A stretch of 63,348 bases of DNA, filler included, from Kipferlia bialata (taxonomy: Eukaryota), in assembly GCA_003568945.1 (NCBI GenBank). It is 4 parts of 4 records of this genome, joined end to end, with 100 filler letters (N's around TTAATTAATTAA, not from the genome) between each part and the next. Parts side by side here need not be neighbours in the genome. Positions count along the whole stretch, not along the records: positions 38,847 to 59,403 come from BDIP01000178.1; 3 more parts are not named here. One strand, 5' to 3'. A program made the position numbers and the translations under genes. Numbering within the stretch: position 1 is the first letter of the stretch; each line of letters opens with the position of its first letter. Below the pieces are notes generated by a model that was given only the letters and a program-made list of their open reading frames with translations, ran no database searches and was not told the origin of the DNA. Positions 3,001-59,503 of this stretch are shown in pieces.

Positions 3001-4025
3001 TTTAGGTGGTATATACAAGAATCAGCATATGGATACATGTATCTAAGTTGAGAGAGATAATAGTAACAGCACCAGTCCACCATCTGCGTGTCCCTACCTC
3101 CCTGTGAACTCCCTCAATATGATGATGGCTGCTGCGTCTGTGGATGACAGGCAGTGCCCCAGCTCATGGCCATAGTGGGGGGAGATGAAGATGAGGATGA
3201 AGCCACAGGCCAGGACAGCCGTCTCGGAGGTGGCAGCTGGGGTGGGGGTGGGGGGTAAGAGAGAGCAATCAGTGGAGATGATGGATATATGTATCATAGG
3301 ATACAATACACATCCATCTTACCTATGCACCCGTTGGGGAGTGCCACAGCCACAGCCTGACCAGGGGCCACACCAGCGGCATACAGACCCCTGCCGATAC
3401 CCTCGGCCAGGCGCTGCATCTCTCCACAGGTCAGCTCAATACCCTCATCGGGGAAGATCTGGGGGTTAGGAAGGAGGAAGTGCAATGGTAGTCATCGAAA
3501 GAGCAGGGGACAGGACACATGAACAGACAGCAAAGGTAAAAGGATATACGTGGCACGAGAGTACAGTATCCTATAGGGTATCAAGACATGATAGTGATAT
3601 GGGTGTGTGCCCTATATATGCATTGGCACAGATACACCCACCGTGTTGATGGCAGAAGGGTCGGCAGACTGGGCCCTGGCAAAGCGCCTGGCGTTAGGGT
3701 GTGATTAGCTTGTCTGGTCAGTACTATCTAGCGGTGAAATCATCACTATAATACAGACGAAAGTACAGTGAACGGAGGACTGAAGTGCACCATCATTCCC
3801 TTACCTGCCGAAGACTGGGCTGGGGATGTTCCACTCAGGCTTCTCAGCACCCTGACAGTGAGTATGGGAGCACTATCCTGCATGGAATAGGATGGAGAGT
3901 GGTATTGACCATGCAGGGAGATCACCCCTGCCGTTCTATCAGTGCCGCACCTTGACGTGGCTCTGCCCTGCACCGCTGGGCCAGGTCTCTAGGGGCTGGT
4001 AGTTGACCCTCCCATTGTCCACCAT
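82..4025 (-). CDS. Multi-exon NRPS-like adenylation-thiolation-reductase (A-T-R, carboxylic acid reductase-like) protein; 3' end runs off the window
   Basis: Spliced from ATG 4025 (MVDNGRVNYQPLETWPSG). A-domain motifs YSFTSGSTGAPK, GAFGMTETSG, GWLHTGDMA, GRIRNLVIRGGVNIFPPEIE, PRTTSGKI. Carrier motif FFAVGGDSL (~1020-1045). SDR reductase motifs NVFVTGATGFIG, VHCGARV and YAVSK (YxxxK). Confidence 0.9.
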
Positions 4026-11684: not shown

Positions 11685-11829
11685 CTGTTGGTGGGATTGA
11701 GGGGATTGAGGGGCGAGGGGTGCCAGCGCGAAGAATTAAGTTAAAAGAGGGGGGGGGGGGGGGGCCAAAAAAAAATTTTGGGTTTNNNNNNNNNNNNNNN
11801 NNNNNNNNNNNNNNNNNNNNNNNNNNNNN

Positions 11830-11841
11830 TTAATTAATTAA
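11830..11841. other. Artificial scaffold linker (stops in all six frames)
   Basis: TTAATTAATTAA centred in an N run. Confidence 0.95.
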
Positions 11842-11885
11842 NNNNNNNNNNNNNNNNNNNNNNNNNNNNNNNNNNNNNNNNNNNN

Positions 11886-13443: not shown

Positions 13444-16400
13444 CTACTCTAGGTACTGGATCCCATAGAGACCCTCGAGCTGTTTCATGGATCTGATGGC
13501 AGCCTGGGGGTGAGGTATGGGGTATATAAATGGCAGTCTATCCAACATACTATAAATATATAAATATAGTATATCAAACCGCTACCATATGGAATGATAT
13601 ATGAATACTTATGGATATGCAATGATATATACACACTCCGTGTACCTTGACGTTGCACTGTGACCAATGCAGTATATATATATGTATATATGTATATATA
13701 TATATATATATATATACATGGAGTGATATACTTGATACATATACGTATCATATACACACTATATATGATACCTTGACGTTGCACTGTGATGCGTCCACCA
13801 TGGCTCTGAAGGGGAAGTCGAGGGCCACAGTATCAAGTACACTGCACATTGTGATCTGTTGATTAATGATATATAGATGGAGATACTGATACTGCACATC
13901 GTGATCTGGGGTGGGCGGGGGTATACAGGCATAGTGGGTTGTCATACATATCACGTCGTACATACATATCCCTACCTGCATTCTGCCTGTCACATGACAC
14001 AATTATGGGGTGTTGTTACCTAGCAAGGTAATATATACTCATTATGTAATGTACATATAGTCCCACATGGATCCTGCCTGTCACACATGATACAAGTACG
14101 AGGTGTTAATTAATATATATACTATATTACATATACTACGTATATACACATCCCTACCTGCATTCTCCCCGTCCTGACGAATGTGTCGACTGCTGCCAGG
14201 AAGGTCAGGATAGATGAGTAGCCAAAGTGGGCATAGAACATGGCACGGCGCAGCCTGAGTGAGATATACAAATACGACTGTACACAAGAAGTGGTTAGAG
14301 GTATATGTATATAGAGACAGAGATGAGTATACACCAGAACTGATGGTATACAACATGGCACGGCGCAGCATGGGTTAGAGACAGTGATTATGAGAGAGGT
14401 AGACATGTACACGACAATACACGAGAACTGAATGTGTGTATGTATCATTGATATAGCCTGACACGACGCAGCCGGGGGATAAATAGAGAGAGAGGCAAAC
14501 ATATATGGAATGTATATAGGTATGGAGTACACTGGCTAGATACACATATTCTATATATATTCTATATATATCCACTGTTCCTTGCTATACTCTTGTGCTA
14601 TCACGGTATATGAACATGAATACCCATTTACGGCTATATAATAATAAACACTGTCCCACTGTACCTCGCGTTATGTGCTATGACGTTGTTCTGCACAGAG
14701 GGGGAGAGCATCCGGAACTGTCTGGTGATTAGAGTATAGAGATATATGGAGATATGGATAGAAATATGAATATACGCCAGATGCAATTATAGCAGTACCA
14801 TATACGGAACTGTCTGGGGGTATGGCAATGGACAGTAATACTAGTATATAGACAGAATTCATATCATTTTCTGACCACACACTCTGCATCCCCTCACCGT
14901 ATAAGCAGTATGTATATCCAAATATACACACACACATATATATACACATATCTATATACATATAGTAATGCCCATATAATAGTACCTGGCTACCCTCTCT
15001 GCCTCCTCCTTCTGTCTCTTCTCCTCTCTGCCCATCACACGCTGAGGTGTTAGAGGGGGGGGGAGGACTACATAAGAGGGCAGGTATATATACTATGTAC
15101 CCTCTCCACTACTCATACACTGCCTTCCCCGCTGCCTGCAGAGACCCCAGTATCAGTATCAGTATCACTACATATACAGGCCATGTATCATATATACACC
15201 ATATATATCTATTATCTACACACTACCTACCCTGCTGCCTGTATCAGTATCAGTATCAGATATATATACCATAGGTAGGTATATATATGCTATATATATA
15301 TATGTATGCTACATAGTATTAGAATCAAAACTATACTAGTGATACACACACCACCTGCCCTGCTGCCTGTAGTGACCCCAGGCTCAGGTTCTGTCGCATA
15401 GAGGGGGAAGGGGAGGGGGAGGGGGGTTGGGTGCCCTGGGTTGAGGGGGGGGGGGGTAGGGAGAGTGATATATTATGTCAATACAAGAGCAATATGAATA
15501 TACGACAATGGTAATGGGTGTGGAATATCACATATATCTATACATACACTCTGGTGTGTGTTGCAGCGGTACTTGAATCCCATTTAACCATGTCTATCCA
15601 GACTTGTCCCTGTTAACTGATAGATATATCACAATATACAATGCATATATATCCATCCATCTATACCTGTCCCTCTGTCTGTTGTTATCCCTCTATCATG
15701 ACAAACATGCTACAACATACATACACATATTAATATATACACTATTACTTAACCTATACATACACACACACATACATACATACCTGCCCCTCTGTCTGTT
15801 GTTGTCCCTCTATCACTGTGCCAGTCACAGCCAGACGGGCCAGGTCCTGGGGTGAGGCACACACATATGTGCATACTCATAACAACATGTTAGAGCATAT
15901 GTATATACATATATATATATATATACACCTGGAATGTCCTTGTGAGCATAGTGGCTGTGTCTATGACAGCTATGCATATATGCATATATACACATGTATA
16001 TATACATACATCTATATATATACATATACACACATATGTGTATATACATACCTGGAATGTCCTTGTGAGCATGGTGGCTGTGTCTATGACAGGTGTCAGT
16101 ATGTCCTCCACCTCAGTCCACACAGACACAAGGCGTCTGGGGGTAGGGGTAGGGATATGGGCACACAAAGAGGCTAATATTACATGTATATACATACACT
16201 GCATGTGGGGGAGAGGGAGGCATGAATAGGATGTGACACACTGACTGTATAGTACGACATATACACCATACCTAGCCATGTCCGATGTGTCTGTGGGGCT
16301 GATGCTACCCAGCACAGACACCACCATGGCACCCGCATGGCCTAGGGGTGAGGGGTATAGAGGTATACATATATATAGTGTATATATACATATTGGTATA

Positions 16401-19400
16401 CAGTTGGACATGGTACATCAGGCATATACGACCATGGCATGTCCTAGGATAGAAATTTGTATACATATATACACACACACTTGAAGAGTAGAGTGGTCTG
16501 AACGGATAAGTGGTTGGGGTACAGTTAGGATGATACAACTATACAGAGTCAATACAATGTAGTATATATATGAAGGAATACCTTGTCCGTTGCCTCCCTC
16601 ATCAAACCTAGCGGCCATAGGGTATATAGGTTATTAAATACTACTATGTCATATACATACCCTGTGGGTTCCCCCCCTCATCAAACCTATAGGCCAGGGC
16701 ACTGATGCCAGTCCTGGGGTTAGGTGTAGAGGGTTATAGATAAAGAGGTTATAGATAGGTGGAGGTATGTATAGAGAGGGTTAGGTGTAGATGGGGTTAT
16801 ATATATGAGGACCTAGAGTCAAAAGTGAAACAGCACACGACAACACATCAACACCACCCACCTGATCTGGTGCAGACTGGTCATATTACACATCCATTAT
16901 ACGGCTACATAGTACTTATACACATGCAATACATACTATACATACCACCCACCTGATCTGGTGCAGCCTGGTCTCGTTGTACAATCATTATACGGATACA
17001 TATGTAACAATAACAACATGCACAAGTATACCTGATCTGCTGGAGACTGGTCTGGACCTCCTGGTCTGTGTCATCCAGCCGGGCATTGACACAGGCCTCG
17101 GTCACAGCTGGGGTGGGGGTGGATATGGATATACATATATCTTGGGTATAACACATCCCACCCCCCCGAGTGCCTGTGGCTGTGCCCCTCTGACTGTAGG
17201 TGTATATATACATAATACTATATATAATACTATATGTATCTCTCTCTCTATAAGTACCTTCCAGTGCCTGTGGCTGTGCCCCCCTGATGGTGGGGACAGG
17301 CACAGCAGGGCCAAACAGACATGGGGTCAGAGGGGTATACATACATTGTAGGCATATATATACATCCATACCCAGCTGCTCTGCCACTGGGCTGAAGGGA
17401 CTGGACACAAGGTCAGGGGCCAGTCTGGGGTGAGACATTGGCCAATACATATGGGATAATGTATCAGTATCAGATATATCAAGCATCAATACTTACCAAC
17501 TGGGGTGAGACCATGGCCATTAGGATTATACCATTATAGGTAGTATATATACATATATATATATATATAGGTAGAATATACAAGACAGGGGTCAGTGCGG
17601 GTCAAAAGTATCACGATAGAATAGGGTACCCGCTTGACCATACCAGCATATACTATATATATATATATATGTCATAGTAGTGCATGTCACAATAGTGCAC
17701 AACTACTTGGATGGCCATGAGGGGATAAAGCTATATACATACATTCATGATAATACGCTACCGCACCTTACACTGGAGGGTGACAGAAGGTATGTATATA
17801 TATATAGTGCATTGTATATATCATACCTAGCGCTGGATGGTGAGACCACGGTGCCAGGGGGGGCAGACCTGAGGTGGGGGACAGTAGATACATGTGATAT
17901 ATATAGACACCAGACCATATATACATGGGGTGGGGGTAAATAGTTATATATGATGTACACTGACAATATAACATATACACATATATACCTGGGGTGGGGG
18001 ACAATATATAGAGGGTATCTATCAATCTATCCATATATACATACCTGACTGGTGTTGTCTGATACATACATTCACACCCCATCTATATATGTAATGATAA
18101 TATAGAAATGATGTATATATATACACACATACCTGATGGGTGTTGTCTGATCCATCTACACACCTCATCTAGTTAATATTGAATTATTATATATACTAAT
18201 ATACATATATATATATACATACCTGACTGGTGTTGTGTGACCCTGACCCCTGACTGGCAGGTACTGGCCATGGGCAGGGGAGGCATCTGGCAGTGAGAGA
18301 TGGGTATATATATATATATATATATATACATATTTACCTGGTACTGTGACGCTCTCCTCCACACACACTAATCTGTCTATCTGTATACATAAATATATAT
18401 ATCCATACATATCCCTAAGTACCTGGGACTGTGACACTCTCCTCCTCACTCGACACCTGCTCTGCCCCCTCCATTGCTATGGACCACATGTCTCTCTCCC
18501 TCTGCCGCAGGGCCTCCCTCTCTCTCTCCCCCACACTCACATCAGTCTCATCCTCTCTCTCTCCCTCTCCCTCCACGTGTGTGTCAGGGATGTCAGTCTC
18601 CACAACATCAGCCTCTCTCTCCCTCCCTGTCTCTCCCTCACCACTGGACACCTGACTCGTCTCTCTCTTGACCCGTCTGCGCCTCTTCACCTTCTTCCGC
18701 CTGAGGTCAGGCATGACTATGGAACAATACTATTAGTATTAGACAGGACACACCATACGACACTGAATCTATGATCCTCTCTATGAGCAATACATATAAA
18801 TACTCAGATATAGATATCCAAATAGAGATCCATGTATTGATACACACTACTGCAAAGAGGTCGGGAGACACTCTGTCCACAGGCATACCCCCACCTTCTC
18901 TCAGACGTTGACACAGATGGCTCAGCGTCGGTCTCTCTCTCTCTCTCTCTCTCTCTGGCCTGACTCTCCTCGGCCTGCTGTCTCTCTCTCTCCCTGGCCT
19001 GTTGGGTGAGGGGGTGGCCACACAAGTATTTACACATATACAAACACACGGGTGCTAATGCATAACCATAGGACACTACTCTCTCCCTGGCCTATTGGTG
19101 AGAGGGGGGGTTAAACGAGACACATACGCATATAGATAACATGGGGAAGAAGTTATACTGATCCCCCACCTCACCCATTGAATATAAACATTATTGAAAA
19201 CAATCGACACATATGAAGCAGTCCCACCTCCCAAACCAGGGTATATAGTGCATATGACTATATATGTAGAGGGTCCACCCACCTCCCCCACCACGGGACT
19301 GCTCTCCAGGAACTGGTTCTGACTGGCCAGGAACTGGGCCTGGGGTAATAGTAGATATACATACACACACATATATATATATATATACAATCTCATTCAT

Positions 19401-20659
19401 ATATATATACACATTACATATACACCAGGAGTGTAGATGAAATAGAGAAAGTTCTGACTGGCCAGGAACTGGGCCTGGGGTGTTAGTGTATATGTGAATA
19501 CATATATATATATGTACATACTATATCTGCAAAAGGAGTGTAGATGGAGACAGACAGGGTCTAGGGTTCTGACTGGCTAGGAACTGGGCCTGGGGTTTAG
19601 TATGTATATACAAGTATACATGAACTATTATACACACACACACACACGTATACATATACCTACAATTAGTATGATGACAGAGAGAGGGTTCAGGTTATGA
19701 CAGGCGAGGAGTCGGCATCCGGATATATGATACCTGCATGTGTCCGTAGGATAGGTCGTCTGTACTACATATATAATATTAGAAACAATAATATGTATAC
19801 TTACTATATCAGTGTACCTGCATGTGCCCGTAGGAGAGGTCGTCTGTCTCTGTCACACTCTGCTCTGTAGGGTAAGAGGGGTGTTAGCATATATACACAG
19901 ATATACATGTACAAGGGAGTACAAGGATGATACCGATGCTGATACAGTCTCTGTCACACTCTGCTCTGGAGGTGAGAGGGGGGGGGGTATACTCATGCAT
20001 CTATATATCTAAAGATACAAGGGAGTGCAAGACGGCTGAGTGTACCATCAGCGGTAGCATACATATACATATGCATAGTGGATCTATCCAGTCGTCTACA
20101 TAGAGATGGTCTAGCAGGGCAAGGATGCTACAAATATATCCATCCCCCAGTATACATGAGAGGTATGTGGGGTGTACGTACTGCGGTTGGAGGTTAGTTG
20201 GGGAGAGGGGGGTGAGTGTATGCAGTGGTCAATATGTGTCTAGAGCCTAATCACACATCCGCAGGCGCATCCACTCAACCCAACATGATAATACCAGTAC
20301 ACTAGGAGTCCCACATACTGGTAACTAACCACTGTGACACCAGATACTCACTATCACCCTCCAGTACCCGACATACATACATATAGACATCTCATGTCAC
20401 CCAGCATATACACACAGTTAACAGTAGAGGGCACACACACTGTCCCCCCCACCCTTGCTACCCACAGACATACACCACATCTACCCCTGACCCACGCATA
20501 CCCACCTCCGTATCCATACCCCTCGTGGCTGAAGAGCAGGTCGTCTGTCCTCACTGACGTCTCCTCCTCGGTCAGATACTCATCCCTCCCACCCCAGGCC
20601 ACACTGGCCGCACTCATGCTGCTGGAACCAGTACGGCTCCTGCTCCTGCGTAGCGACAT
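13444..20659 (-). CDS. Hypothetical protein, about 18 exons, long microsatellite-rich introns
   Basis: Mostly phase-consistent exon chain from MSLRRSRSRTG to AAIRSMKQLEGLYGIQYLE* (one or two junctions unresolved). E/R-rich low-complexity middle with RRKKVKRRRR. Confidence 0.7.
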
Positions 20660-20857: not shown

Positions 20858-22620
20858 ATGCCTGAAGCTACCTGTGTGATTGTGGATAACAGGTACGGCC
20901 CCAGTGTCCAGTTATAGGTCCATTTGTGACTCTATGTGTCTTCTAGGCCTGTGTATCCCGTATGGACTGCTACCATGACACATTTTGTCTTAATACCTCT
21001 TTATTGTCCCTCTTATGCAGTGAGTTCTCCCGTAACGGTGACCTGCCCGTGAATAGGCTGGTTGACCAACTCGATGCTGTTGATGCAGTGATCAGGTGGG
21101 TATGGGCCGCAGAGGCATATATATCTGGGGTGTATGTGTATATATTGGTGAATTCGGGTGGGTCTTGTGTTTGTGTATGGCCTCTACCGCTCTAGTGTAC
21201 CAGCCAGTACTTGTATGTGGACTGTATACCCTACACTCTCCCTCTATTGTATGCCTCTCCCACTCTCTACGTACTGGTACGTGTCATACCAGCTCAGGGT
21301 ATAGGTGTATAGTCCATATATCCCCCCTCACCCCCTAGGAACAAGCTGAGCCAGTCTGCACAGGCAGTGGTGTCTCTGGTGGCATCAGGTGGCCCTGAGG
21401 TGGTGGTGCCCCCCACCCATGAGAGGCAGCACCTCCAGAAGGGGCTCAGGTACGTCAGTATAGTACATCACCCGCTATCTTATACTGATACTGACACTGG
21501 TACTGATACTGATACATCCAGAAGGGGCTCAGGTGTGTGTGTGTATGCGTTTCTGCTATGTCTTATATGGCCTCTGTATATCGCTGTAGTACTTCACCCG
21601 CCATCTCTGTAAGTTTGTGTCTCCTACCTCTCTGTACCCTCTCTGATTATCCAGGACCATCACACACAAGGGACTCCCATCTCTGGTGCAGGCACTGCAG
21701 GTACAGGAGATACATATGTATAAATATATTTTTACTGTATTCTGTTTATCTAGCAATGTGTGTATACATATAGGTTCAGGATGTGTACTATGTGGGTGTA
21801 AAGTATATATACAGAGCGACCCCTCCCCTCATGCCAGGTTGCCATGCTCTCCCTTCGCTACAGGCCTTCCAAGGACGCCACACAGGTACAGCAAATATGT
21901 GTATATTGCATTCATACAGATGTGTATATTGATGTATACTACATATACTGTTTCATGTCCGGTTATTCACAGGTACAGCATGTGTATGTATTACAATTCA
22001 CGTGTCACTATATCATCACCCGCAGCGCATTGTCATGTTGAGTATAACTATAACTACATATGCTACTAAGAACAGCTACTATGTTTCTAAAACATGTATA
22101 TATGCATAAGTATGTCCAATGCACCCTCACCCCTAGCGCATTGTCATGTTTGTGGGGTCACCCCTGGGGCCATTCCTCGAGGACGCAGAGAAGGTGTGCA
22201 TATTGTATATACTGTGTATACATACATGTAAGGCAACTTGCGTATTTTGTGTGCATACCTCAACGCAAAGAAGGTATTCATTACATCAATATATACGCAC
22301 GGATAAGTGTATTGAGTTCCAAGGCTGTATGTTGTTATTGTGTTGCTCTATCCCCCCCCCCTGACCGTTCAGCGTCTGAAGAAGGAGGGCAAGAGGCTGA
22401 GGAAGGCCAGGGTGTCTCTAGACATTGTGTCATTCGGGGCATGCTCTAGGGTATGTGTGGGCAACCTCCCTACAGTATTGGTATAGATCAAAATATTGCA
22501 CAATAGAGTAAGAGTTACGTAATGAATATATATATGAGTGTGCCCCCCCTCCCCCCACCCCAGGACAACCACCCCCTGCTGACCACCCTCATCCAGTCAT
22601 GCAACAGAGGCCCAGAGGAG
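20858..22620 (+). CDS. RPN10: 26S proteasome subunit Rpn10/PSMD4 vWA domain; 3' end in the gap
   Basis: MPEATCVIVDNSEFSRNGDLP..LQVAMLSLRYRP..RIVMFVGSPL..KRLRKARVSLDIVSFG matches the Rpn10 vWA pattern. Confidence 0.92.
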
Positions 22621-40142: not shown

Positions 40143-43100
40143 ATGAGCAAGAGGGAGAGGGACTATGTCCCAATGGAGCGAGACCTCCCGAAGCGGTATG
40201 TCTTAAGTTGTCTGTCTGCTTTCTGAAAGTGATTGTTCTTCGTGACATACACACATACCTTATCTCTCTCTGATGAACCAAGGCGTGAGCCAAGCAGAGA
40301 GTATGGGGACCGGTACGATGCGCCTGCTGATCGCGACAGAAGGTATTCTTAAAGCCATATTGTCGTGTCAAGTTGGTATTGGTACTGGTCTAGTATATGC
40401 TCGTCTTCCATCTTACCTCAGAGGTGCCCCTAGATATGAGGATAGGCCCCCAGTGAGAGACGAGCGGAGGGCAAGCGACCGCGGGTGGGTGCTGATTGAA
40501 CCTCTCGTCATGTATCACCCCTCATATTTGTGTGACGATCTACATTTCCTACATATGTCACCCCACCTTACTCAGGCCCCCTCCCCCCCGCAGTGCGGAG
40601 AGGCGTCCCTCTGACGCTGTCCCTCGCAGTGACCGTGTGTATGGTAGAGAGGGCGACAGAGGGTGAGTGGTAATCTCGGTGGCTTCTCCAAATGTGTACT
40701 GTATACCCACCCACAGGAGGTATGAGGAGAGAGAGAGAGAGAGAGGCTATGCCAGGGAGGAGCACAGGGCACCCCGGGCAGAGGACCACCGCAGAGCTCC
40801 TCCTCAGGACTCAGGGTACCATAGAGATTATCATAGCTATCATAGCGAGTATGGGTGGGTCAATGTCAACGCTTGTATACGGTAGTCTTCCTTTCCATCA
40901 CACTCTGTCCCATATATTCATGATTGGTACTACTCCTCTTTCCCGTCATCGTATATCTGCTGCTCCCTGTGTCCCCCTCTCACCCCAGACAGCCTGAGAG
41001 GAGAGAGGCCCCTAGGGAGGTGTACAAGGTGGAGGGCAGGGAGTACTCCACCACCAGTCAGGCCTACAGACAGGGGGAGAGAGAGGCCTCCCGGCTGGAC
41101 GACCCCTGGAGAGAGGACATCCGCAAGGAGAGGGAGAGGGAGAGAGAGAAGACTACTAGGCCGGCCAGGGTGGAGTACAGAGAGGAGCCCCGACGCGAGA
41201 CCAGGCAGCCCCAGGTGTATGCCAGGGAGGAGATGCGGGTAGAGAGGAAGCGTGTCCCAGTGCCATACCCAGTCAGAGAGGAGAGGCGCGAGGCCAGGCC
41301 TGTGGAGTACAGACGTGTGGACCCTTACGCCAGGGAGGGTGAGAGACTGCCCCCTCAGGAGTACAGACGGGAGGAGAGGGAGAGAGTGGTGGAGCGCACG
41401 CCTGTGGCTGTGAAGAGGGAGAGGGATGACAGAGGGTGAGTAACAGTTTGATGGTACTTTGTAGTGTGATTGTTTCGTGGCTCTCCCTCTGTTCCTACTC
41501 CCTAATGTGTAGGTATGAGTACAGGAACGGTGGAGACCGTCGTGCCCCTCCCCCCGAGTACAGAGAGAGGGGCCCAGAGAGAGAGAGACCTCGCCACGAT
41601 ACCCGTGAGGTGGTGTATGTCAGAGAGCGCCCTAGAGAGGTTGTGCATGAGAGAGACAGACACAGGGAGCCTGGGTATGGGAGAGAGAGAGTGAGGGAGA
41701 TGCCAAGGGAGGTTGTGTACGAGAGAGAGAGACCTAGAGAGGCTGGGTACGAGAGAGATAGGGAGAGACCCAGGCAGGCAGGATATGAGAGGGAGAGAGA
41801 GAGACCCAGAGAACCCGTGTATGAGAGTGAGAGGCCCAGAGACACTGCCTATGAGAGGGAGCGGTCTAGACCTGTGAGCCGTGAGAGAGAGAGGCCTGCC
41901 GAGCCCCGGTACGAGAGGCAGGGGGAGAGAGAGAGAGAGAGACCTCGGGAGATGGTGCACACAAGGGAGAGAGAGATGCCACCCAGGGAAGAGAGGAGAG
42001 ATGTGCGTATGGAAGAGCCCCGCAGAGATGAGAGGAGGCCTGAGGCCCCTTCCCCCAGGGTCAATGGACGGGAGCCTGTCAAGAGGGAGGGAGAGAGAGA
42101 GAGGGAGCCTGTCAGGGACCAGTCCGCCCGGTCCTCCCCCCAGGACCGTCCTGCCTCCAGACCTGCCCAGCCTAGGGTGTCCCTACCCGACAGAAGGGGT
42201 GGGTACCAAGGGGGGGCCAGGGGTGGACATGGGGGGCAGAGGACAGCGGGGACAGGCAGCCTGGGTGGGTGCATTGGTGTCTATCAATACAACTGTAGAT
42301 CTGTTGCCTATTATACTTCTCATACACTAATATGAAGTTTATTGCCAGCCTCCCTCACCCCAGCCACCAACTGCTACCCCCTGCAGATAGAGGAGGGCAT
42401 GGAGTGGATGCTGTACGGAGTCACATTCGACTGCCCCAAGGTGGGTGTATTATGTGCACAACGTGATAGCACGCCTTCCACCCCCCTCACCCTCAGATGC
42501 CCCCCAAGGCCATGGCCGGGGCAGGTCTCAGGGCAGCCATCCTAAGACGGTGGCTGTCGGAGCTAGTCACTGAGGTCCCCAGGCACCTGGTGGAGTGTAC
42601 CGAGTCCACTGTGCTGTGCAGGCACCCCCTCACATACAAGGTACATATACATGGGGATACTGATACTGATACTGATACACCCCCCGACATACAAAGTGGG
42701 GATGTAGGGGTCAGGGTGTGGGTATGACACTGCCATGTCCCCAAGTGGGGCCTTATTGGTATCTAACGTACATCCCTCCCCCTACTGACCCCAGGACGAG
42801 TCACGTGTCTGCAAGGGAGACGTCAAGACCTTCAGCTTCACAGACAGGAGGCAGGGTGCCGTGGACATGCGTGTCAAGGTGTGCTCCATCTCCAAGGTCA
42901 ACATCAACGCCACCGTCGCTGCCCCCAACGAGTCCTCCGAGCAGGCCATCTCCCTCCTCAACAGAGTCACCCACCTGGCACTCAGGACAGGCCATGAGTA
43001 CCAGCGGATTGGGTCCAAGTACCTCGTCTCCAGAGTCACCAGCAAGGACCTGGAGCCCAAGATCAGGGGCAGGCTGGGCCGGATAGTGGACAATGAGGCG

Positions 43101-44295
43101 TATGTGCACCGGGCCTTCACCCTTGCCGTGCAGCCCACTGTGTCTGGGGCCATGATGGTGCATGAGGTCAACCACCAGATCAGGATGAACACCAGCATTG
43201 ACAGGATGGCACGGTCAGGGCAGTTACCATCACCTGAGCAGGCCGCCAAGGACCAATACAGGGTGCTGCCCTGCTACGACCAGGGCACCAACTACCTCCT
43301 GATGGGCATCGAGGTGGGTGTGTATAGTGTGTGTATGTTTTTATTTGTACGTATGTATGTACAGGTGTGTCTAAGGGTACACACCAGTATCGCCCTCTGA
43401 CATCCACAGGAGAAGGCCTTCGATGAGCGCATGACAGATGACGACACCGACACACGGACATTCAGAGAGTACTACACCACCAAGTTCGAGAGACCCCCTA
43501 GGGCCCCAGAGATGTGAGTTGTGTTCGTATACTATATGTGTTCAAAGAGTAGCATATGATTGTATGTACCTTTGGATTTTCAGTGTATCCCTTTGGTAGA
43601 ATGGATGTGCCTCCATGCACCCTGTCATCCTCCTATCATGCCACTCACTGTGCATATGATAGACTGACACTGACACTCAGGGTGTACATCTACAAGTGGT
43701 GCAGAGACAGGGTGGCCAAGATGCCGAGCCATGTCAACATGGTCAAGACACGCCTCAAGTCAGGCCACGACGCATGGCTCATCGCTGACCTCTGCTTCCC
43801 CGTGGAGCTGTCTGCCTCTGTCAGAGGGGCACTGCCACAGGTGTGTACAGTGTGTGTATATGTGTATGGATGTGTATATGTATATGGTCCTCCCCCCCCC
43901 CCACCCCCACCCCCAGGTGTGTGGTCTCAAGCCAGATGGCAAGCTGAAGTTCATGTCGTCTCTGGCCTCTAGGCTGGCCTCTGTCAACAGTGAGAAGGAG
44001 CACGCCATGCCCCCAGCCGATGTGCTCAAGGCATGGGGCGTCACAGTCGACAAGAGGTGTGTATTGAGACGATACCCTGCCATTCTTCTGCCCGTGTCAC
44101 TGTTCCTCACCCCCCAGGGCTCTGATGGTTGAGACCAAGAGGCTGGACGAGCCCAGGATCCAGGTGTCTGGGGCTAGACAGCAGGTCACGGCCAGAGACC
44201 TCAGGCGCAGCATGCAGAGGATGAGGCTCTCGGGGGTACGGGGTGTATTGTGTACACACTCTCTCAACCTTGGTACCACAGTCCTATGAGTGTAT

Positions 44296-44335
<40 letters not shown>

Positions 44336-46135
44336 ACCCCCAGGTTGAGCTTGACTCTCTGGGTCTCTTTGCATCTGACAGGGCAGACAGAAGGGTGGTG
44401 CAGGAGTTCGAGAACGCACTCCCCAGGGCCCTAGAGACTGTTGGCATCAGGGTGATGAAGAGGCCGCAGCTGGTAGTGCTGCCTAGGTCAGTGTATACTG
44501 GGTGTCAACCATATGGCACTTCCCAACACAACAGACTGTTGATGGATAATAGTGTATATATATGTATGGATACTAATCTTATGTACATATCCACTCTGAC
44601 ACCCAGGGGCAGTGGACCCCGTTGGGAGGATGACGTGATCAATGTCGTGACCCAGGAGAGACACAGCGTGTGTGTGTTCATGGTACGTGGCAGTGATGTT
44701 AATATCCTTCCCCCTCCACCTGTACCCACCCCCCAGGTAGACGACAACTCCAAGGACCTGTATGCCCTTATCAAAGAGGAGATCAGCGGCAGAAAGGGCA
44801 TACCCACCCAGTTCCTCAACACAAAGGTACATTCATTCACATAGAGACACCCTATATGGACTGTACTGATGCATGGGGTGTATACCCATACCCACCCCCT
44901 CTGACCCCAGGTGCAGAGTGGTCTGCAAAGGCAGAGGGGCATGATCACCAGCACCCTGGCCACGCAGATAGGCGCCAAGCTGGGGTACGGCAGAGGAATC
45001 AGTGATATATACTCTGATTTGTAAGGGTTTAGAGTGGCTTGCTGCATGTGTTTCTCAAGGTTGTTTATCCCTCCCCCACCCCCAGCCACCCTGTCTGGCA
45101 GCCCACTGGCACTAAGGACCTCAACGCCCTTGTTGTGGGTATTGATGTGTGGCACGGGCAGGGCAACAACGGGAGGTCCATTGTAGGCTTTGGTGGCTAT
45201 GACTTCAGAGGGGCAGACGGTCTGCACACCTCCGGGGGTCTGTCGGAGCACCCTGCCAAGCAGGAGGTGCTGTCCCACATCCAGGCAGGCACATACGAGC
45301 CCGACACCGGCAGCGATGCCCTCTACCACTTTGTAGACAGGTGCCTAGGCCTCAGAGCACCGGAGGGCAAGGCCCCTACGTGCAAGCCCCCCGACACTGT
45401 CATAGTCTTCAGGGACGGCACCTCCCAGGGGCAGCTGGAGGCGGTGCGCAAGCAGGAGCTGTCGCAGGTTCATAGGGCCCTGGCCAAGTACAGGCTGGGA
45501 GACGGGCCTGACCTCAAGCCGGTGCAGGTTGTGTACTGTGTGTGTGTCAAGCGGTCTGGTATCAGTATGGTGGCCACCAAGGAGTCGGACTTCCAGGCAG
45601 CAACAGACGGGAGGGCATTTGACCCCAGAGACGCCACCAACGCACCCACAGGAGCCGTGGTCATTGACCCCAGGATACTCAGGTACCACACCATACCATA
45701 TCATAGTGTCATAGGGCCAATGTGATGTTCTGATGTATTCTCATGGGTGAATCCCCCTCACCTTCAGGAACCCCGAGACTGAGTTCTTCCTCTTCTCTGT
45801 TGGCACCTCCCCCTCCACGTCTAGGGCCGTGCACTACCACATTGTGGAGAGTGGTGGGATGGCCAGGAGGGACATCTGCAACATCGCATACAACCTGTCC
45901 TTCCAGTACTTCAACTGGCCAGGTACGCTTGAGTCTCTTCCTCCACTGACTATAGAAAGAATCTATTATTGTATTATCATGCATCATTCACCCCCCAGGC
46001 CCTGTCCTTGTGCCGGGTCCCATCCAGTACGCCACCAAGGCAGCCTATCTCGCAGGGGAGTGCTTCAAGGGCCTCATCAGCGATGAGGCCAAGCAGACTG
46101 GGCTCTACTGGCACAGGGGCCTGGCATACCTCTAG
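40143..46135 (+). CDS. Argonaute family, PIWI-like protein with ~500 aa R/E/P-rich N-terminal extension
   Basis: N domain TNCYPL..WMLYGVTF; PAZ TFREYY..LIADLC; MID LYALIK..GIPTQF and QIGAKLG; PIWI VVGIDVWH, IVFRDG, FQYFNWPGPVLVPGPIQYATKAA; ends LAYL* at 46133-46135. First acceptor uncertain. Confidence 0.92.
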
Positions 46136-49442: not shown

Positions 49443-51712
49443 CTACGTGAAGTCGCACTCTCTGATGTCAAACAGGTCCTCAACTGGGGCACGGGCCTAA
49501 TATCAGTCTCAGTCACGTATACGAATATATGTATATTAGTTAAACTGAATATGCAGGTACATATAATGTCCTCAACTGGGGCCTAGAAGTAAGACAATTA
49601 TTGAATTAGAGGATTAGTTTCATTAATTCTCAGCTGTGAGGTAGTTGGACCAGGCCTTTCAATATGGCATGGTCTCTTATCATCTCATATTGATAATTAT
49701 TCTATATCATGAATATAATATCACATATTGAAAGAATACCCACCTTCTCAGCTGTGAGGTAGTTGGACCAGGCAGGGCCGAACCAGGAGGAGCCAACTGA
49801 GGGGTCAGAACCAATCAATCAATCAATGAATCATCAATAATTAGTCAATCAATGAATCAAACAGAATATCAGTAAAACGTAGATATCCAATATGTATACA
49901 GGTTATGTCCTATACACTACATACCTAGCACGTGGTGTGTCAGTGCCAGTGATGCATAGCGGTCACACTCCTCAGCCGAGAACAGGTCGAGGTAGGCCTG
50001 GGGTGACTATGTATAGACGTAGTAATAGATGTGGAGAATGAATACACACATATATATATATCCACATATATATGTGTACACACCTTGAGTTCCGAGTGGT
50101 ACTCTGTGTATAATCTCTCTCTCTCCCTCTCTTTGTACACATCTATATATAAATATATATATACATACATACCTTCAGTTCCGAGTGGTACTCTGTATAC
50201 ACACACTCTCTCTCTCCCTCTCTTTGTATACATCTATATATATATATATATACATACCTTCAGTTCCGAGTGGTACTCTGTGTGTATAATCTCTCTCTCT
50301 CCCTCCCTTTGTACACATCTATATATATATATATACATACATACCTTCAGTTCCGAGTCGTACTCTGTATACACACACACTCTCTCTCCCTCTCTCTGTA
50401 TACATCTATATATATATATGTATAGATACCTTCAGTTCCGAGTAATACTCTGTGTGTATACTCTCTCTCTCTCTGTCTGTCTGTCTGTCTCTGTCCCTCT
50501 CTCTCTCTCTATATATATATATCCACATATGTATATATATATATACCTTGAGTTCCGAGTGGTACTCTGTGTATGATGGCAGCAGCACACTGGTGGCAGT
50601 GCCCAGTCTGGCCCTAGAATCAGTAAGATCAGATACACAAATATGAATGATAGAGGGTATAAGAGTATATATACATGAAGTGATAATGGTGGCAGTCCCA
50701 GTCTGGCCCTAGGGGTTAGGGATATACATGAATAAATGTATATATACAAAATATATACAATAAGAATATACTATAATGGAAGTACTGGTGGCAGTGCCCA
50801 GTCTGGCCCTAGGGGTTAAAGACATATATACATACCAGTATAAACATACACACACATATATATAAATATACATATATATTCATGTATAAACCCATTTGGA
50901 ATTTCTGGTGGCAGCGGTCCTGATGGTATGGCATTATCACATCAGATGATATATAAATATGTGTAACCAAGATATGCATTACACATACACGGCCTTCTGG
51001 ACACATATACAACTCCACTTGTCAAAGACCTAATTGATACCAGATATAACAATTCCTGACATATACGTATATATATATATATTGGTTGTGTATATATGCA
51101 TACATGTATATACCTGATTGATACCAGGTAGCTAGGGGCACCCCAGCCGTGGAGCTTGGACAGGGCGCAGTGGAGTCTGGGGGTCAATGACAAACAAAAC
51201 TAATTAGATCAGTAGGATAGCAATACTAAAGAAACAGTAATATTTCTATTATCAAGGAAACGTTGACGACAAGTGCTCAGAACAGAGTGGAAACAAGCAT
51301 TGCATGGATGTATGAATTATGAATTATGAATTATACCTTGTGGATGCCAAATAAATAGAATTGGATATCATCTAGTCCACGTGAAAAGCACACACACATA
51401 TATACAAATATATCAATGTACACATGTACACATGTATGAATATATCCATATTGACTAGTCACGTACACCCACTGCTTGGCCAGATGGGATGCCTTACGGG
51501 CTGTCTTGATATCCACCTAGGGTGAGATACATGGTACACATTATACACACATAGCAACAAGGAGAGAGAGATATGGAAAGGTAGACAGGAAGAGAGTTAG
51601 CTTAGAGAGAGAGAGAGATAGAGAGAGAGTACGTACCCCAATCACCACTCTCTCTGAGTTGGCCTCCAGAGTGGCAATGTCTCCATGCATGGGGTCAAAC
51701 CTAGACCCTTAA

Positions 51713-51757
<45 letters not shown>

Positions 51758-54664
51758 AGATCCCCTACCGTATGTGTCTCTGACCCTCTCTGGCACTTCA
51801 AGGGCACCAAAGAGCATGTCGGGGGCCTGGGGGTCAGATATATATATATATATATATATGTATGTATCTATATCTCTCTCTCTCTATATATATGTATCAG
51901 GGAACCAAACAGTATGTATAAAGAGCATGTCGGGGGCCTGGAGGTTGGATATATCCAGATTATGTAGACAATACTCACATACCAATGCAATAACTGTGCC
52001 CCACAGATAGAAGAACAACACCCATTGACTCTCCCTCTCTTCATACTTCAGTATACATACTTATACAAATACTATACCTGAGCCCCACACCCGTTGAGGT
52101 AGAAGCACTCCTCCTGCTGCAGTTCATCCCAACTCTGCTGGGCAATCCTAGGGTTAGGATAGAGACATATATATATTATATAGAAACTCCGATACTACAA
52201 CATTTATGTTAGGTCTATCCCTATTCCCAACTCTGCTGGGCAATCCTGACTGTTAGAGATTGGAGAACAGTAGAACAATACTTTGTACTGCGTTAAATGT
52301 ATATACCTTTGCTGGGCAACCCTGGGATGAGTCTACAAAAGTATATATGTATATATATATATACACGTAGAAATACATATATTCATATATGTCAGTACCT
52401 AGGTGGTGTAGCTCTGGGTCGATCCAACATAAACATATCATTCAACAAACTCTTGACCATGCATACTCCCTCTCTCTATGCACACTCATTACATATTCAT
52501 AGTATTGTATGAGTACCTAGGGGGTGTAGCCACCAGCTCTGGGTCGATTGTTGACTTCATGAGGTGGTAGTGCACGGGATAGGTGAACCTAACATAAGGG
52601 GGTTGGGGGAGAGAGAGAGAGAGAGAGGTGGTAGTGCACGGGGTAGATGAACCTATGGTGAGACAAGAGAGAGAGAGAGAGAGGTGGTGGAGTACGGGGT
52701 ATTGGGCTTGTACTCACTTTGCAATGAGCTGCTCGGCACTTGTGACATTAGTATATACACACATTCATAAGCATATATACACACATTCATAAGCATATAT
52801 ACACACATATCACTCATGTATGCATCTCACATCCTTGGAAAGGTGCATCCATAGAACATCTTAATAATACTCTACTCACTTTGCGATAAGCTGCTCGGCA
52901 CTTGTGACATCAGTGGGTATCCTAAACAGCAGCTGTGAGAAGGGGTGGGACAGGCTGACAGCACCCACGTCGCCCTCGGCAGTCACGCCCTGGGGGTTAG
53001 TATGCAATTACTATAAATATATATACAATTATTAATCAATACAATTGTACTATATGAGTGGCATTAATGCATCACTCGGCAGTCACGCCCTGGGGGTTAG
53101 GGAATAGAAAGGAGAATACCACATTGATGAATACACCGAACTACAAACCTACTTCTGCCAATAACAAGTCGAAAACGGAGCATACCAGAGCTGATACGTA
53201 TATCATGTATTTACACATACATTCACACATATAGTATATACACTATATATATACATATATAGTATACTATATAATTAGTATATATATACTATATATATAC
53301 TATATACTATATACTACATAATTAGTATATATATAGATATATATACTATCTACCTGAGGGAACAGCCTCCAGAAGGGTACATAGGATGGCATGGGGGCAG
53401 AGGGCTGGTGCTGCAGCTTGGCTTATGGTTAGAGGAATTAAAACTACACGATATCAATCCTAAAACATATGATGACAACATATGATTCGTCATTATACAT
53501 TTCCATATACATACACATGTCCTACATACCTGCCAACAGTACCCTGGCTGCGCATAGCCCGTTCACCTCCTGCTCACATCTGAAGCCAAGCCACTCTCTC
53601 TACATATATATACAGTTATATATATTGTATATATATTATCCGATACCTGCCAGGAGTACTCTTGCGGCACAGAGTCCAATCACCTCCTGCTCACATCTGA
53701 AGCCAAGCTCAGAGTCAAAGGGCGAGATGGCAGTCTGGAGGCCGCCTGAGGGTAAGTTATAATCAAACATATGATGTTAAACTGTTAAAAGATACACTAC
53801 TAGTATACAATTCAAGTAGTACGTATGAATGAACTGCTATATACATCAGAGTCAAAGGGCGAGATGGCAGTCTGGAGGCCTCCTTTATGTTAGATGTGTA
53901 TAGTATATATATTGTACATAGTATATAATGGTATATATATACTCGTATAGTAGCCTATACACATCAGAGTCAAAGGGCGAGATGGCAGTCTGGAGGCCGC
54001 CAAACGGTAAGTACCCACTGTGTATATTATCTGTCCATATTAATACATATATACATATACATATACGTACCAGCACAAGCTGGCAGTCTCTCCAGCAGTG
54101 CCACCCCCACTGGGAGGTACTCATACTATATACATATATGGATGTATATATGAATATACACTGCTACGTACCTGCCCATGCTGGTAGCCTTTCTAACAGA
54201 GCTACCCCCACTGGGAGGTTGGAGCACAGGAAGGCAGGCACTAAGAGTGACACGGGGTGGGAGGCACAGCCAAAGCCAGTGTCCCTCTCCATATCCATGG
54301 CACCGCCTGATATAAGGGTGTAGAGAGAGAGAGAGAGATGGGTATCCATATCCATGGCACCACCTTGGTTGAGAATAGTATATATGAATAGAGAGGATAT
54401 AATTAGGGTATAGAGGGAGAGACAGAGAGAAACAGACTGTCCCTCTCCATATCCATGGCACCACATGATATAAGGGTGTAGAGAGAGAGAGAGAGAGAGA
54501 TAGGATATTCCCCGTATATCCATAGCACCACTTAGGTGTCACCAACCGTACACAGCACTCGCACATCCTGTACACATGCTATACACATCCTGTACACTAA
54601 TTCATAGATATATACACGGTCCATATATACATATACCCACCCATGTCGATGTTGAGCAGCAGGC

Positions 54665-54701
<37 letters not shown>

Positions 54702-57700
54702 GAGACATATAGTACAGTATACACTGTATACATATACATACACCCACCCATGTCGATGTTGAGCAGCAGGCTATATATGTATATATATATAGTACGTAAA
54801 GACATATAGTACAATATACACTCTCTACATGTCCACCCACCCATGTCGATGTTCAGCAGCAGGCTGTCCATGACCTCCTCGCCACAGCCTGGATATTAAG
54901 GGTGTAGGGAGAGTATTAAGGGTGTAGAGAGAGTATTAAGGGTGTAGAGAGAGAGAGAGAGAGAGAGGGAGATATCCACTCATCACACACCGTCTCCTAG
55001 GCTTGTGCTCTCCATGTCACCAGCGTTCTCTCTCTCTCTCTCTCTCTCCTTGTCTCTCTGGGCTAGGCCTGGGCTCTCACTCACGCACCTGAGGGTGATA
55101 TGCGTATACTATGGTGTATATCCTACTGTCACAACTAACATTAAGTTGTTGAATCTCTTATCTAAGCGATGACCAGTAGTGGACACCGATATACTCTTAC
55201 CTTAAGTATATATTTACACGTACTATTCATACCTAGAGTTATCGAATCTGAGCGATGCAGCGGATGACCCCACTGAGCCATAGGTGGGGGTGTCAACGGA
55301 GAAGTCAACAAGATAGACAAGTCCTAAGGGTTGGATATATTTATAATAATATATGTGTATATATATATAGAGAGAGAGAGAGGGAGATGTGTCAACGGAG
55401 AAGACAACGAGGTAGACTAGACCTGGTGTGAGAGAGAGAGACACACACACACACACATATATATAGATATAGATATATATATATGTGTGTGTGTGGTGGG
55501 GTGTCCACGAAAAAAGTCAACCAGGTACACACATACAAGACTAAGGGGTTGGAAAGCGAGAGCGAGAGAGCGAGCGAGAGAAGGAGAGAGAAGGAGAGGG
55601 ATGAAGTCCAACACACATACCCATACCTCTCCCACAAACTTGATACGGGCGTTGCAATCCATTCAATATGTACAAAATTACCTCTCTCCTCCAGTCTTGA
55701 TATGGGCTCTGCCTTGACACCTCCCTCATATACTTATACATCTACCTATATATATATATATATATAGATCTCTATACATGTCTATATATATGTTTGGTAC
55801 ATATATATACACTGACCTCTCTCCTCCAGTCTTGATATGGGCTCTGCCTTGACACCTCCCTCATAGTCCACAAGGAGACGGTCCTAGAGTGAGTATATAT
55901 ATAGATATGTATACATATATATATATATACAGAGAGAGAGAGAGAGAGAGAGAGATGCCTGACCCTCCCTCATAGTCCACAAGGAGACGGTCCTAGGGTA
56001 AGAAGATATATAGATGAGTGAGTATATAGAGTACATGAATGAACATATAGAGCCATAGGGCAGATAGAGAGAGAGAGAGAGAGAGACAGGGACTAGTATA
56101 TACATATATCCATATATATGTATATGTATAGAGAGAGAGAGAGAGAGAGAGTACCTGTGGCAGCAGAGGGACACTGGCCAGGGCAAGGGCCCTGAAGAAG
56201 GGGGTGGGCTTGTACCTTCACATTAGAGAGAGAAACAGAGGAGGGGAAGAGAGAGGGGGACATTTGAAGAGAGAGGGNNNNNNNNNNNNNNNNNNNNNNN
56301 NNNNNNNNNNNNNNNNNNNNNNNNNNNNNNNNNNNNNNNNNNNNNNNNNNNNNNNNNNNNNNNNNNNNNNNNNNNNNATACGTACACTGGTATGCCACTG
56401 GCACTGAACGCACTCATCATGAACAGGTTCCAAAATACTAATGTATGTATATATACTATTTACACTATATAATCTATACGTAAAATAAACTACTTCATAT
56501 ACATATACTATAATATATACACGTACACTGGAATACCGCTAGCACTGAACGCACTCATCATGAACAGGTTCCATGCCCCAGGGGACAGATAGACCTCTCG
56601 GGTGCCAGGCTTGACAAGACGGCATCTAGAGTTAGATGAAATATATATGGAAATATAATTGAATAAATAATAATAATAATATAGTGATAGACTACACGGG
56701 TGCCGGGCTTCACAAGTCTACACCTTGGGTTTAGATATGTACCTGATATTGTATACATATGGAATTGATAAAAATACTCATTGCATATTCATGAATATAC
56801 CTGTTGTGTGCCCCTCTGAACACTCCGGCACAATACATTCTATACTATCGACAATATATATATACACACACCTATATGTATATATAACCATTGGTACCTG
56901 TTGTGTGCCCCTATGTATATGGTAATGTAATTACAATTATATATATATACATAAATACCTGTTGTGTGCCCCTCTGAACACTCCGGCACTCTTGGCAAGC
57001 TCAACTGGGGTGAGAAAGGTGTTACACATGTGAATAGTCTTCAATACATATGTATATATATAAATATACTAGTACTCTTGGCAAGCTCAACTTGAGGCTG
57101 AGAGAGGTGGTAAATATGTACAGTATCTTAATATAGACAAATATATTCGCTCCGTATGTATGTATAAGAGTACTCTTGGCAATATATATTACAAGGACGT
57201 AAGTCGGTAATAGAGTCTTGACATATCGTATTACAATACACATATCCACCGTACCATGGCAGAAGGGTGCAGGATGGGCTGCAGTCTGATATGCAATATA
57301 TACAATTAATGTATCTTTATATATTATAATTAATAAATATTATTATAATACTAGCCGTACCCATTGCCGCAGGGTGCAGGATGGGCTGGAGTCTGATGTG
57401 GTCAAGCACAAGGGAGGACTGCCTGGCAACCTATGATATTAGTATAAATGTATACACACTCATATATATATATATATATTGAGAGAGAGAGAGAGAGAGA
57501 GATATCAAGCACCAGGGAGGACTGCCTGGCAACCTAGGAGTCAGTGATATAGTATATATACTATAGTAAATATATGGGGAGAGAGAAATCGGTAGAAGAG
57601 ATCTGGGATACCTCATAGGTGGTTGATCCCAATGCATAGAGTATATATACATAATCAATATTACATAATAATGTATAGTATAGTTATATACCTCGTAATC

Positions 57701-59014
57701 ACTATTACATATTAATGTAGAGTATAGTTATATACCTCGTCTGTGGTTGATCCCAAGTTACCGGCCACGAACATCAGGATGCGCCTTAGTGTTAGGTATA
57801 CTAGTAACTAATGTATATACATACAATACACTAACATACTATACTAGTAGATACTAGTAGATACTAGTAGTACATATACATACTACGAACATCAGGATGC
57901 GCCTACTAGTCAGGTATACTAATAACTAATGTATATACATACACTCATATACTATATTAGTAGTAGTTCATACATAGAGCATCAGGATGCGCCTACTAGT
58001 CAGATACATGCATGATCATACAAACACTAGTATAGTATTATAAAAACTAGGTTATATATATACACAAACCTCTGTGCCACCAGGCTCTGTAACAGGATGA
58101 ATGTAATGCAAACATCAATACATTCTTATGTCTCTCTCTACATATATTAATATCAATATATATATATATATATATACCTCTGTGCCACCAGGCTCTGATG
58201 AAGGCAGACCGGGCAGATATCAATATATGTATTTAGGTATATACACAAATATCAATATATATCAATATACATTCATATACGTATGTCCATTATGTCTATA
58301 TGTATCTATACACTAACCTCTGTGCCACCAGACTTTGTAAGAGGATGAAGGCAGACCGGGCAGCAGCAGGCTCAAGCTTATCAACCTCATCTGGAGTTAG
58401 AGACAAAACAAATCACTGAAGCAGTGTATAGAATGCGGGTATCTATGTGATAACCAGGGGAATGCATTTCAAGCTTATCACCTCTGCGTATTAGAGAGAT
58501 ACACAATACTAAGAGTAGAGAGAGAGAGGTGAGGAAGGGGGGGAGAGAGAGACAAAGGACTCCACTCAACTACGAACAGCAGGAGTTATAGTAGCAAATA
58601 TGAAGACGTATAAATAGATACATTGTATAGCCTGAATTACCTACGAACAGTAGGTACGGCAGGACTGGCTCTCCGTCCTCAGTCTCGCACATGTACGTCT
58701 CAGACGGGCCTGGGGGTAAGATGGACACATATATCATAGAGAGGGGACGGTAGAACATGTACGTCTCAGACGGGCCTGGAGGTAAGAGGTATAAAGGCAT
58801 ATACACACAGATATGATAGGGAGGAAGAATAGAGAACATGTACGTCTCAGACGGGCCTGGGGGTAAGACTTCACATTTATAATGCCACTCTATGTACACT
58901 TATAAATCTATATTCTTTCAATGTCACTCAGTCTACATATCCATACCTCCCTCGATGCCTGTGCTGGACTGGTGGCATCCATCACACACATACATATATA
59001 TCCATCCATCTAAC

Positions 59015-59055
<41 letters not shown>

Positions 59056-59240
59056 ATGCATATGTATATATACCTCCCTCGATGCCTGTGCTGGACTGGT
59101 GGCATCCATCCATACACATGCATATATATATATATATATATATCATTATATATCTATATACATATACATGTATGCTGCTGTATATACCTCCCTCGATGCC
59201 TGTGCTGGACTGGTGGCAGGCAGCCTCAGACAGGGCATGT
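49443..59240 (-). CDS. Putative Crinkler/RHS-type NTPase + restriction-endonuclease-fold protein, >25 exons, 5' truncated
   Basis: Walker B-like YLLFVDEVDKL, ILMFVAGN, SGIP; C-terminal FYLNGCGAQAPDMLF..VVIGVDIK..WFGPAW; stop at 49443. Continuity across the gap at 56278-56377 is assumed. Confidence 0.6.
50083..50570 (-). repeat. ~87 bp tandem array of exon end + 5' splice site (5 intronic copies plus the exon)
   Basis: Minus-strand CAGAGTACCACTCGGAACTSAAG|GT (minor variants) near 50083, 50172, 50258, 50345, 50429 and 50547 with (AT)n/(AG)n spacers. Confidence 0.9.
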
Positions 59241-59447
59241 CTGGGGGTGAGATTATATAGGATAACTATATTGTGGGAGAGAGAGAGAGAGAGAGAGAAT
59301 GATATATCAGCCTCAGACAGGGTATGTCTGGGAAAACAATAGAATGCCTGGCATAGAGAGAGGGGGGGGGGGGGGGCAGGAGACAAAGTTGTTGTATAGA
59401 TATNNNNNNNNNNNNNNNNNNNNNNNNNNNNNNNNNNNNNNNNNNNN

Positions 59448-59459
59448 TTAATTAATTAA
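59448..59459. other. Artificial scaffold linker
   Basis: TTAATTAATTAA within Ns. Confidence 0.95.
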
Positions 59460-59503
59460 NNNNNNNNNNNNNNNNNNNNNNNNNNNNNNNNNNNNNNNNN
59501 NNN

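Follow-up and report, generated by a model that had tools for sequence, protein, structure and literature searches.

Intronic copies of exon ends, some of them synonymously recoded, in Kipferlia bialata

Introns of Kipferlia bialata carry partial copies of the ends of the exons beside them, which we call echoes, and some of these echoes differ from the working exon mostly by synonymous changes. A read-derived contig that crosses an exon and its echo at full depth, together with a census that found 81 echoes where 0.6 were expected, confirmed that the echoes are real. Their structure is that of the amphioxus “mirage”; what is new is their density, the lineage in which they occur, and a signature of selection in their codons and intron ends. 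Our preferred reading, to which we assign a probability of roughly 0.6, is that the recoded echoes once served as working junctions in other alleles and were introduced when haplotypes crossed over out of register. Much of the synonymous excess rests on about eight echoes in one gene, and for these we infer an allelic source.

Census and layout of the echoes

The window, meaning the whole stretch of 63,348 nucleotides analyzed here, is intron-rich, with short exons and with introns that are AT-rich and laden with microsatellites. Three N-flanked spacers of equal layout (11786-11885, 38747-38846, and 59404-59503) look like contig joiners, which would make the window four contigs. Within this one window, we aligned each exon of five genes (A, B, C, D, and F; 65 exons and 60 introns) to its flanking introns, using codon-blind scoring and retaining scores of at least 13. 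This returned the 81 echo segments from 120 adjacent exon-intron pairs, the expectation of 0.6 being derived from 3,780 non-adjacent pairs. Echoes were present in 38 of the 60 introns, which is not a genome rate, since the five echo-rich genes were picked after self-alignment, and they extended beyond the interval 52700..58350 to which the original prediction had assigned them. The codon census covered the five genes; four further small genes or gene fragments lay outside it, as did an exon-like segment of gene B, because its acceptor reads AT, and, in gene C, one exon end with an uncertain donor together with the exon that follows.

The genes fell into two classes, one whose introns are long, AT-rich, and echo-bearing (median 270 bases, GC 0.38) and one whose introns are short and nearly free of echoes (median 85, GC 0.49). 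Echo count rose with intron length (rho 0.70), and echoes occurred in 5 of 64 introns of short-intron genes. Of all echoes, 77 ended no more than 7 bases from a splice site and thus spanned the exon-intron boundary. Both 5′ and 3′ boundaries had been copied, each echo being a partial exon copy with a single splice site; GT was kept in 36 of 40 cases and AG in 29 of 37. Where an intron had both kinds, donor echoes lay upstream of acceptor echoes (13 of 13). Thirty-four of the 81 echoes were identical to the exon after trimming and 25 without it, and among the echoes we found indels, radical replacements, and two stop codons. We rejected insertion of a whole intron with both flanks, given that donor and acceptor echo counts correlated weakly (rho 0.25, P = 0.05), and also a processed, cDNA-derived insertion, as 60 introns yielded a single exon-exon junction match within a copy, and that match is an acceptor echo with an intron end similar to the end of the exon upstream. 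Four recoded blocks had no second copy elsewhere in the window.

The second echo-rich gene, gene B (13444..19864, minus strand), has 18 exons and 16 echoes. Its exon-like segment at about 17273-17327 (minus strand), where the acceptor reads AT instead of AG, has its own donor echo (17169-17193) and is possibly skipped or non-canonical. Gene D (28156..30628, plus strand), which we take from its motifs to be class I HDAC-like, carries five acceptor echoes within one intron. Echoes were also seen at exons at 21339-22620 (plus strand) that, we assume, resemble the vWA domain of the proteasome subunit Rpn10. The gene at 42500-46000 (plus strand), presumably Piwi/Argonaute-like on the basis of motifs in its open reading frames, has short introns nearly without echoes. 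In the segment at 82-3460 (minus strand), regions that we take to be carrier-like and reductase-like come after one that is acyl-CoA-synthetase-like, and the whole presumably resembles a carboxylate reductase or NRPS-like protein.

Gene A, its echoes, and their read support

Gene A, the host gene of the recoded blocks, occupies 49443..59240 on the minus strand and was mapped as 26 short exons, 25 of them by placing protein P0002 on the window and one as a further in-phase exon upstream; its N-terminus lies beyond the contig end. P0002, a K. bialata hypothetical protein, was the single 100% match to the translation of one exon. Its relatives, at 33–49% identity, are restricted to fornicates (Dysnectes and Chilomastix) apart from one unnamed protein, and two of six show sub-threshold AAA matches at a weak AAA-type P-loop region. 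A Pfam search with P0002 returned no families, and the AlphaFold model has a pLDDT of 31. The same-species proteins P0008 and P0009 appear to represent missing portions of gene A rather than a second copy, and the gene appears to be split across three protein records. The N gap at 56278-56377 probably hides one gene A exon: the 36-residue P0009 fills the matching gap in the alignment with relatives, and its end resembles an acceptor echo of the next exon.

The six echo-exon pairs originally proposed were all recovered in place on the minus strand, in a frame set by the P0002 mapping and two splice joints in run X2. Working exon 53647..53745, which the X2 spliced contig matches with no other letters, has a donor echo at 53530..53591 with eight synonymous changes and one replacement; 29 distal bases are identical, after which 9 of 11 codons are changed, the GT is kept, and the intron flank is unrelated. 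Exon 54172..54306, supported by the X2 contig and by protein mapping, has a donor echo at 54071..54118 (eight synonymous, one replaced) in which W has become C, a W that all four relatives covering the site retain. Between these exons lie two acceptor echoes (53846-53880 and 53964-54000) that share an end base and have different upstream intron ends, as seen in the census and in overlapping X1 contigs. Exon 56527..56625, placed by protein mapping alone, has a donor echo at 56386..56432 (four synonymous, none replaced) and an acceptor echo at 56686..56725 with six synonymous changes and one replacement, E to V, where the earlier count of six to none had stopped one codon short. The other earlier tallies were reproduced, among them those of the donor echo at 58070-58101 of exon 58318-58390 (three synonymous, none replaced) and of the donor echo at 52718..52748 of exon 52880-52989 (two synonymous, none replaced).

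The census added a second donor echo of exon 58318-58390, at 58178-58216, of the same type with a 7-base deletion. Exon 55233-55323 has two acceptor echoes within 55388..55540, separated by synonymous differences both from the exon and from one another, so that the exon head exists in three mutually synonymous versions; the near echo (55388-55423) has five synonymous changes and one replacement and bears private synonymous changes, and the far one is broken by indels. Exon 57361-57430 lies between a donor echo (57255-57293) and an acceptor echo (57505-57533). A five-unit donor array at 50084..50455, with similar intron flanks, reads as a plain minisatellite-like mirage. All these features are on the minus strand.

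We compared the assembly with reads of DNA run X1 and of run X2, the latter taken as RNA from its predicted type and two GT-AG joints, over 1.3 kb, using contigs that drop rare variants. An X1 contig (53972-54333) spans exon 54172 and echo 54071 with no differences at a depth of 394, compared with 389–428 in its neighbors, and so the layout of this pair is not a scaffolding product. Overlapping X1 contigs likewise support the acceptor trio at 53709-54000, and the 53530/53647 pair stands on the assembly, no listed X1 contig covering 53641-53683, an absence that tells nothing for or against it. A 1,218-base X2 contig has joints 54171->53744 and 53647->53421 over GT-AG introns, with no other letters. 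It follows that this one spliced contig uses the exon copies and skips the echoes, taking the first donor and last acceptor in both introns tested, so regular splicing is undisturbed there as far as a single contig, to which rare isoforms are invisible, can tell. X2 depth was absent over two echoes (including 53512-53597) in these contigs, which drop rare isoforms. Neither run showed other letters indicative of a second allele over the 1.3 kb, although an allele 75% alike would escape the 90% matching used.

Codons and splice signals

Because the working exon itself changes only synonymously, the correct null for pN/pS between echo and exon is about 0.5 and not the neutral value of about 1 assumed at first; when duplication, collapse, and conversion were simulated within a single clonal lineage, the ratio came to 0.47–0.53. 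After trimming of the distal overhang, unique mismatches at codon positions 1, 2, and 3 numbered 23, 15, and 75. Across all genes, with 53 exon ends bootstrapped, pN/pS was 0.18 (95% interval 0.11–0.28) trimmed and 0.30 (0.19–0.45) untrimmed, and the trimmed value was 0.21–0.23 under transition biases of 2–4. Gene A gave 0.12, while the other four genes gave 0.33 trimmed and 0.41 untrimmed, or 0.33–0.47 across trimming and transition bias. With the six hand-picked ends removed, the ratio was 0.28–0.36 trimmed and 0.44–0.57 untrimmed across transition biases; untrimmed alignments presumably enter unrelated intron and inflate replacements, and dropping the top six would bias the ratio upward. 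With alignments left untrimmed and the picked ends removed, no synonymous excess relative to 0.5 remains.

Among the 20 echoes with at least three changed codons, eight had at least three synonymous and at most one replaced, against 1.9–4.0 expected (P <= 0.03), and the untrimmed mixture test gave P = 0.015–0.32. We read the data as a mixture of many plain decaying copies and about eight echoes with dense synonymous blocks, and the earlier idea of passage through protein-level selection holds for some echoes while many others fit ordinary decay. Two blocks had reached or passed saturation, with changes in 9 of 11 codons against 6.8 expected at 53530-53591, and in 8 of 10 non-Trp codons against 5.75 at 54071-54118. 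On an allelic origin, such blocks would need lineages much deeper than ordinary polymorphism. Replacements were mostly radical, and relatives keep the exon residue at the W-to-C and D-to-V sites, from which it follows that the replacements likely arose after the copy had ceased coding. The differences were also polarized: in nine gene A echoes they clustered on the splice side and the distal tract was identical (24 identical codons at the distal end against 11.0, p = 0.003), and the three echoes tested from the other four genes showed no polarity.

Behind echo splice sites, mean flank identity was 0.44–0.46, compared with 0.32–0.34 in unrelated introns, and 20 of 76 echo flanks exceeded the 5% level of unrelated introns. 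Even identical echoes of 29–49 bases adjoined unrelated flanks. Scored with a matrix built from 84 predicted sites of echo-poor genes, echo acceptors averaged 3.6, working acceptors 3.1, and other intronic AGs -14.6; the branch motif was present in 86% of 28 echo acceptors, 97% of 60 working ones, and 19% of 649 other AGs. Neutral decay was simulated 2,000 times for the 13 acceptor echoes whose flanks differed strongly, and no run attained the splice score that these echoes show. This anatomy points to former working junctions.

Origin of the recoded echoes

Under our preferred reading, a local duplication over a splice site would first produce an identical echo, a mirage, tolerated since it has a single splice site. 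Allelic introns would then diverge quickly, leaving exon ends and echoes as the main remaining homology, and a crossover within the shared part would join the echo or exon of one allele to the exon end and intron end of another. The product would be identical in its distal part and diverged near the splice site, in a tract from which replacements had been purged while it still coded, and the displaced copy would later decay, gaining about one radical replacement. Crossover between haplotypes accounts for the polarity and the low pN/pS, for intron ends that are foreign yet intact, and for the proportion of echoes identical to the exon. In a toy simulation (200 individuals, 14 runs per setting), it gave pN/pS of 0.14–0.01 and 37–48% identical echoes (34 of 81 observed), with single clonal runs at 0.23–1.1; this shows sufficiency only. 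Against the reading stand the lack of a second allele in the 1.3 kb compared with reads and of a confirmed relative in metagenomes, the two saturated blocks, a codon asymmetry in gene A, and ratios in the other four genes that plain decay could produce. Cycling by duplication, collapse, and conversion within one lineage, as first envisaged, gives about 0.5 and so leaves the excess unexplained, and of the proposed capture from alleles or paralogs, alleles are the best reading. Some passages of PMC8516963 describe fornicates as lacking NHEJ and Rad51A and having two Dmc1 paralogs, and PMC6719624, in part, describes Dmc1 as stabilizing mismatched triplets; that this mismatch-tolerant recombinase helped to form echoes is speculation.

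We think it unlikely that the working junction instead outpaces its echo, the echo being a frozen snapshot while the exon end and adjacent intron undergo repeated error-prone re-synthesis, are under selection for divergence, or are replaced by sequence of a lineage richer in AT, with only synonymous changes surviving. Gene A lends this some color. It has the saturated blocks; of its 44 synonymous pairs, 31 have the commoner codon in the echo (P = 0.01), although half would be expected of symmetric alleles; exon codons at these sites are unusually rare (mean log RSCU -0.19 vs. 0.21 gene-wide); and exon stretches aligned to diverged echoes have a GC3 of 0.56, compared with 0.68–0.70 elsewhere. 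Yet the pattern is absent from the other genes (8 of 21; 39 of 65 over all genes, P = 0.14), the rare-codon excess on the exon side is not significant in a Fisher test (P = 0.13), and the junction would have to change at about eight times the echo’s own rate (pS 0.24 vs. pN 0.03). Selection for loss of homology would presumably strike the larger echo target first, and the near echo at 55388-55423 has its private synonymous changes. A variant of our preferred reading, with the incoming working copy derived from an AT-richer lineage, would absorb the codon asymmetry of gene A just as well as faster-evolving working junctions would.

We give somewhat less credence to the proposal that all echoes are ordinary single-lineage mirages, made by tandem duplication, decay, and conversion, with the excess produced by purifying selection on the exon and by picking examples by eye. 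Such an origin is probably true of many individual echoes: the ratios of genes B, C, D, and F, without polarity, are compatible with plain decay, the untrimmed ratio without the picked ends brackets the null, and the arrays at 50084-50455 and 28521-28858 have mostly similar flanks. Against it as a full account stand the trimmed all-ends interval, which excludes 0.5, the blocks of 8/1, 8/1, 6/1, and 4/0 synonymous to replaced changes, branch and acceptor signals that are different yet intact, and the identical echoes next to unrelated flanks.

Use of echoes in minor transcripts, with both copies now under selection, is most improbable. Their splice signals are intact, and three of eight recoded pairs offer a formal GT/GC-AG route across the shared part, but five pairs offer none, the three acceptors are purine-rich, the echoes contain radical replacements, indels, and stop codons, and the spliced contig, which takes the exon copies, spoke against the unusual splicing first entertained. 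We give just as little weight to assembly artefact or copying from a paralog: the assembly is fragmented with N gaps, the read comparison spans 1.3 kb, and the short-protein search is insensitive (even P0009 was missed), but an independent contig crosses exon and echo at even depth, junctions between echo and intron reappear in copies that have diverged, protein searches found no paralog, P0008 and P0009 resemble parts of gene A, and the 90% cluster has one member.

The original prediction knew of no description of such a system, and the structure has in fact been published. Mirages are described, in the parts consulted of PMC3087553 and PMC3902484, from amphioxus Adh3, the globins BflGb6 and BflGb9, troponin C, and PGBD5, as tandem duplications over 5′ and 3′ exon-intron boundaries, many of which keep AG/GT, with normal splicing and unequal crossing-over as the proposed origin. 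Kipferlia echoes likewise span boundaries at both ends, many with GT/AG, and leave splicing undisturbed in the two introns tested. Further features of mirages are a copy number that differs from haplotype to haplotype and somatic instability; the present data come from one sample. They differ in that amphioxus units, according to the same parts, are 81–100% identical including the intron portion, whereas Kipferlia flanks, except in a few arrays, are mostly near-unrelated yet functional-looking; in their density, 38 of 60 introns in five genes of a protist; and in divergence that reaches saturation. In the BflGb6 alignment of PMC3087553 (supplementary file 4, compared by eye), units D3–D5 of haplotype 1, set against the exon of that same haplotype, show six synonymously changed codons and no replaced ones, and three of the six states are common to the working exon of haplotype 2. 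This pattern supports an allelic reading and suggests that recoding is not unique to Kipferlia. The parts of PMC3087553 consulted leave the synonymous-only differences unremarked, and the word “synonymous” does not occur in the main text of that paper or of PMC3902484. A literature search that took in few subscription papers and did not extend to the original mirage paper (PMC117041), which may treat synonymous changes, turned up no description of boundary copies with synonymous recoding, nor of any such copies from a protist. The species’ genome paper without its supplements (PMC5874029) makes no mention of duplication, heterozygosity, ploidy, or allele, and among 237 pattern matches in metagenomes, no relatives were confirmed.

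Other systems share some features. The Rogers model of intron gain, as outlined in part of PMC2891723, also involves local duplication near splice motifs, an AG/GT proto-splice site being partially duplicated in tandem, but echoes copy an existing boundary, create no new intron, and leave the original sites in use; we rejected it, as neither the spliced contig nor the route test shows two AG/GT copies serving to bound a new intron. The Tetrahymena 90-bp exon arrays, in the relevant part of PMC6564038, are another protist case in which unequal crossing over has multiplied exon-intron units, but there each unit is an entire coding exon of an LRR gene. Mutually exclusive duplicated exons are whole exons with both splice sites and occur in mRNA. 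They too comprise two synonymously diverged copies, whereas echoes have one splice site; we rejected this comparison given the partial copies, the order of donors before acceptors, and the absence of X2 depth over two echoes.

We hold out, tentatively and as something short of probable, a wider version of our preferred reading, in which introns would be stacked splice-junction archives of deeply diverged lineages, exchanged by Dmc1 recombination that tolerates mismatches and finds its anchors in exon ends alone. A single genome could then be read as a record of the species' allele pool and of cryptic sex or introgression, and in hyper-polymorphic animals mirages would bear this signature generally, although it has been overlooked. 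Echo repeats probably break short-read assemblies and gene models. If the allelic reading is true, echo-rich introns would have a mechanism for their growth, intact decoy splice sites about 100 bases away would provide a natural test of exon definition, and intronic copies of exon ends would reveal past allelic exchange, and its depth, from one genome of a free-living fornicate.
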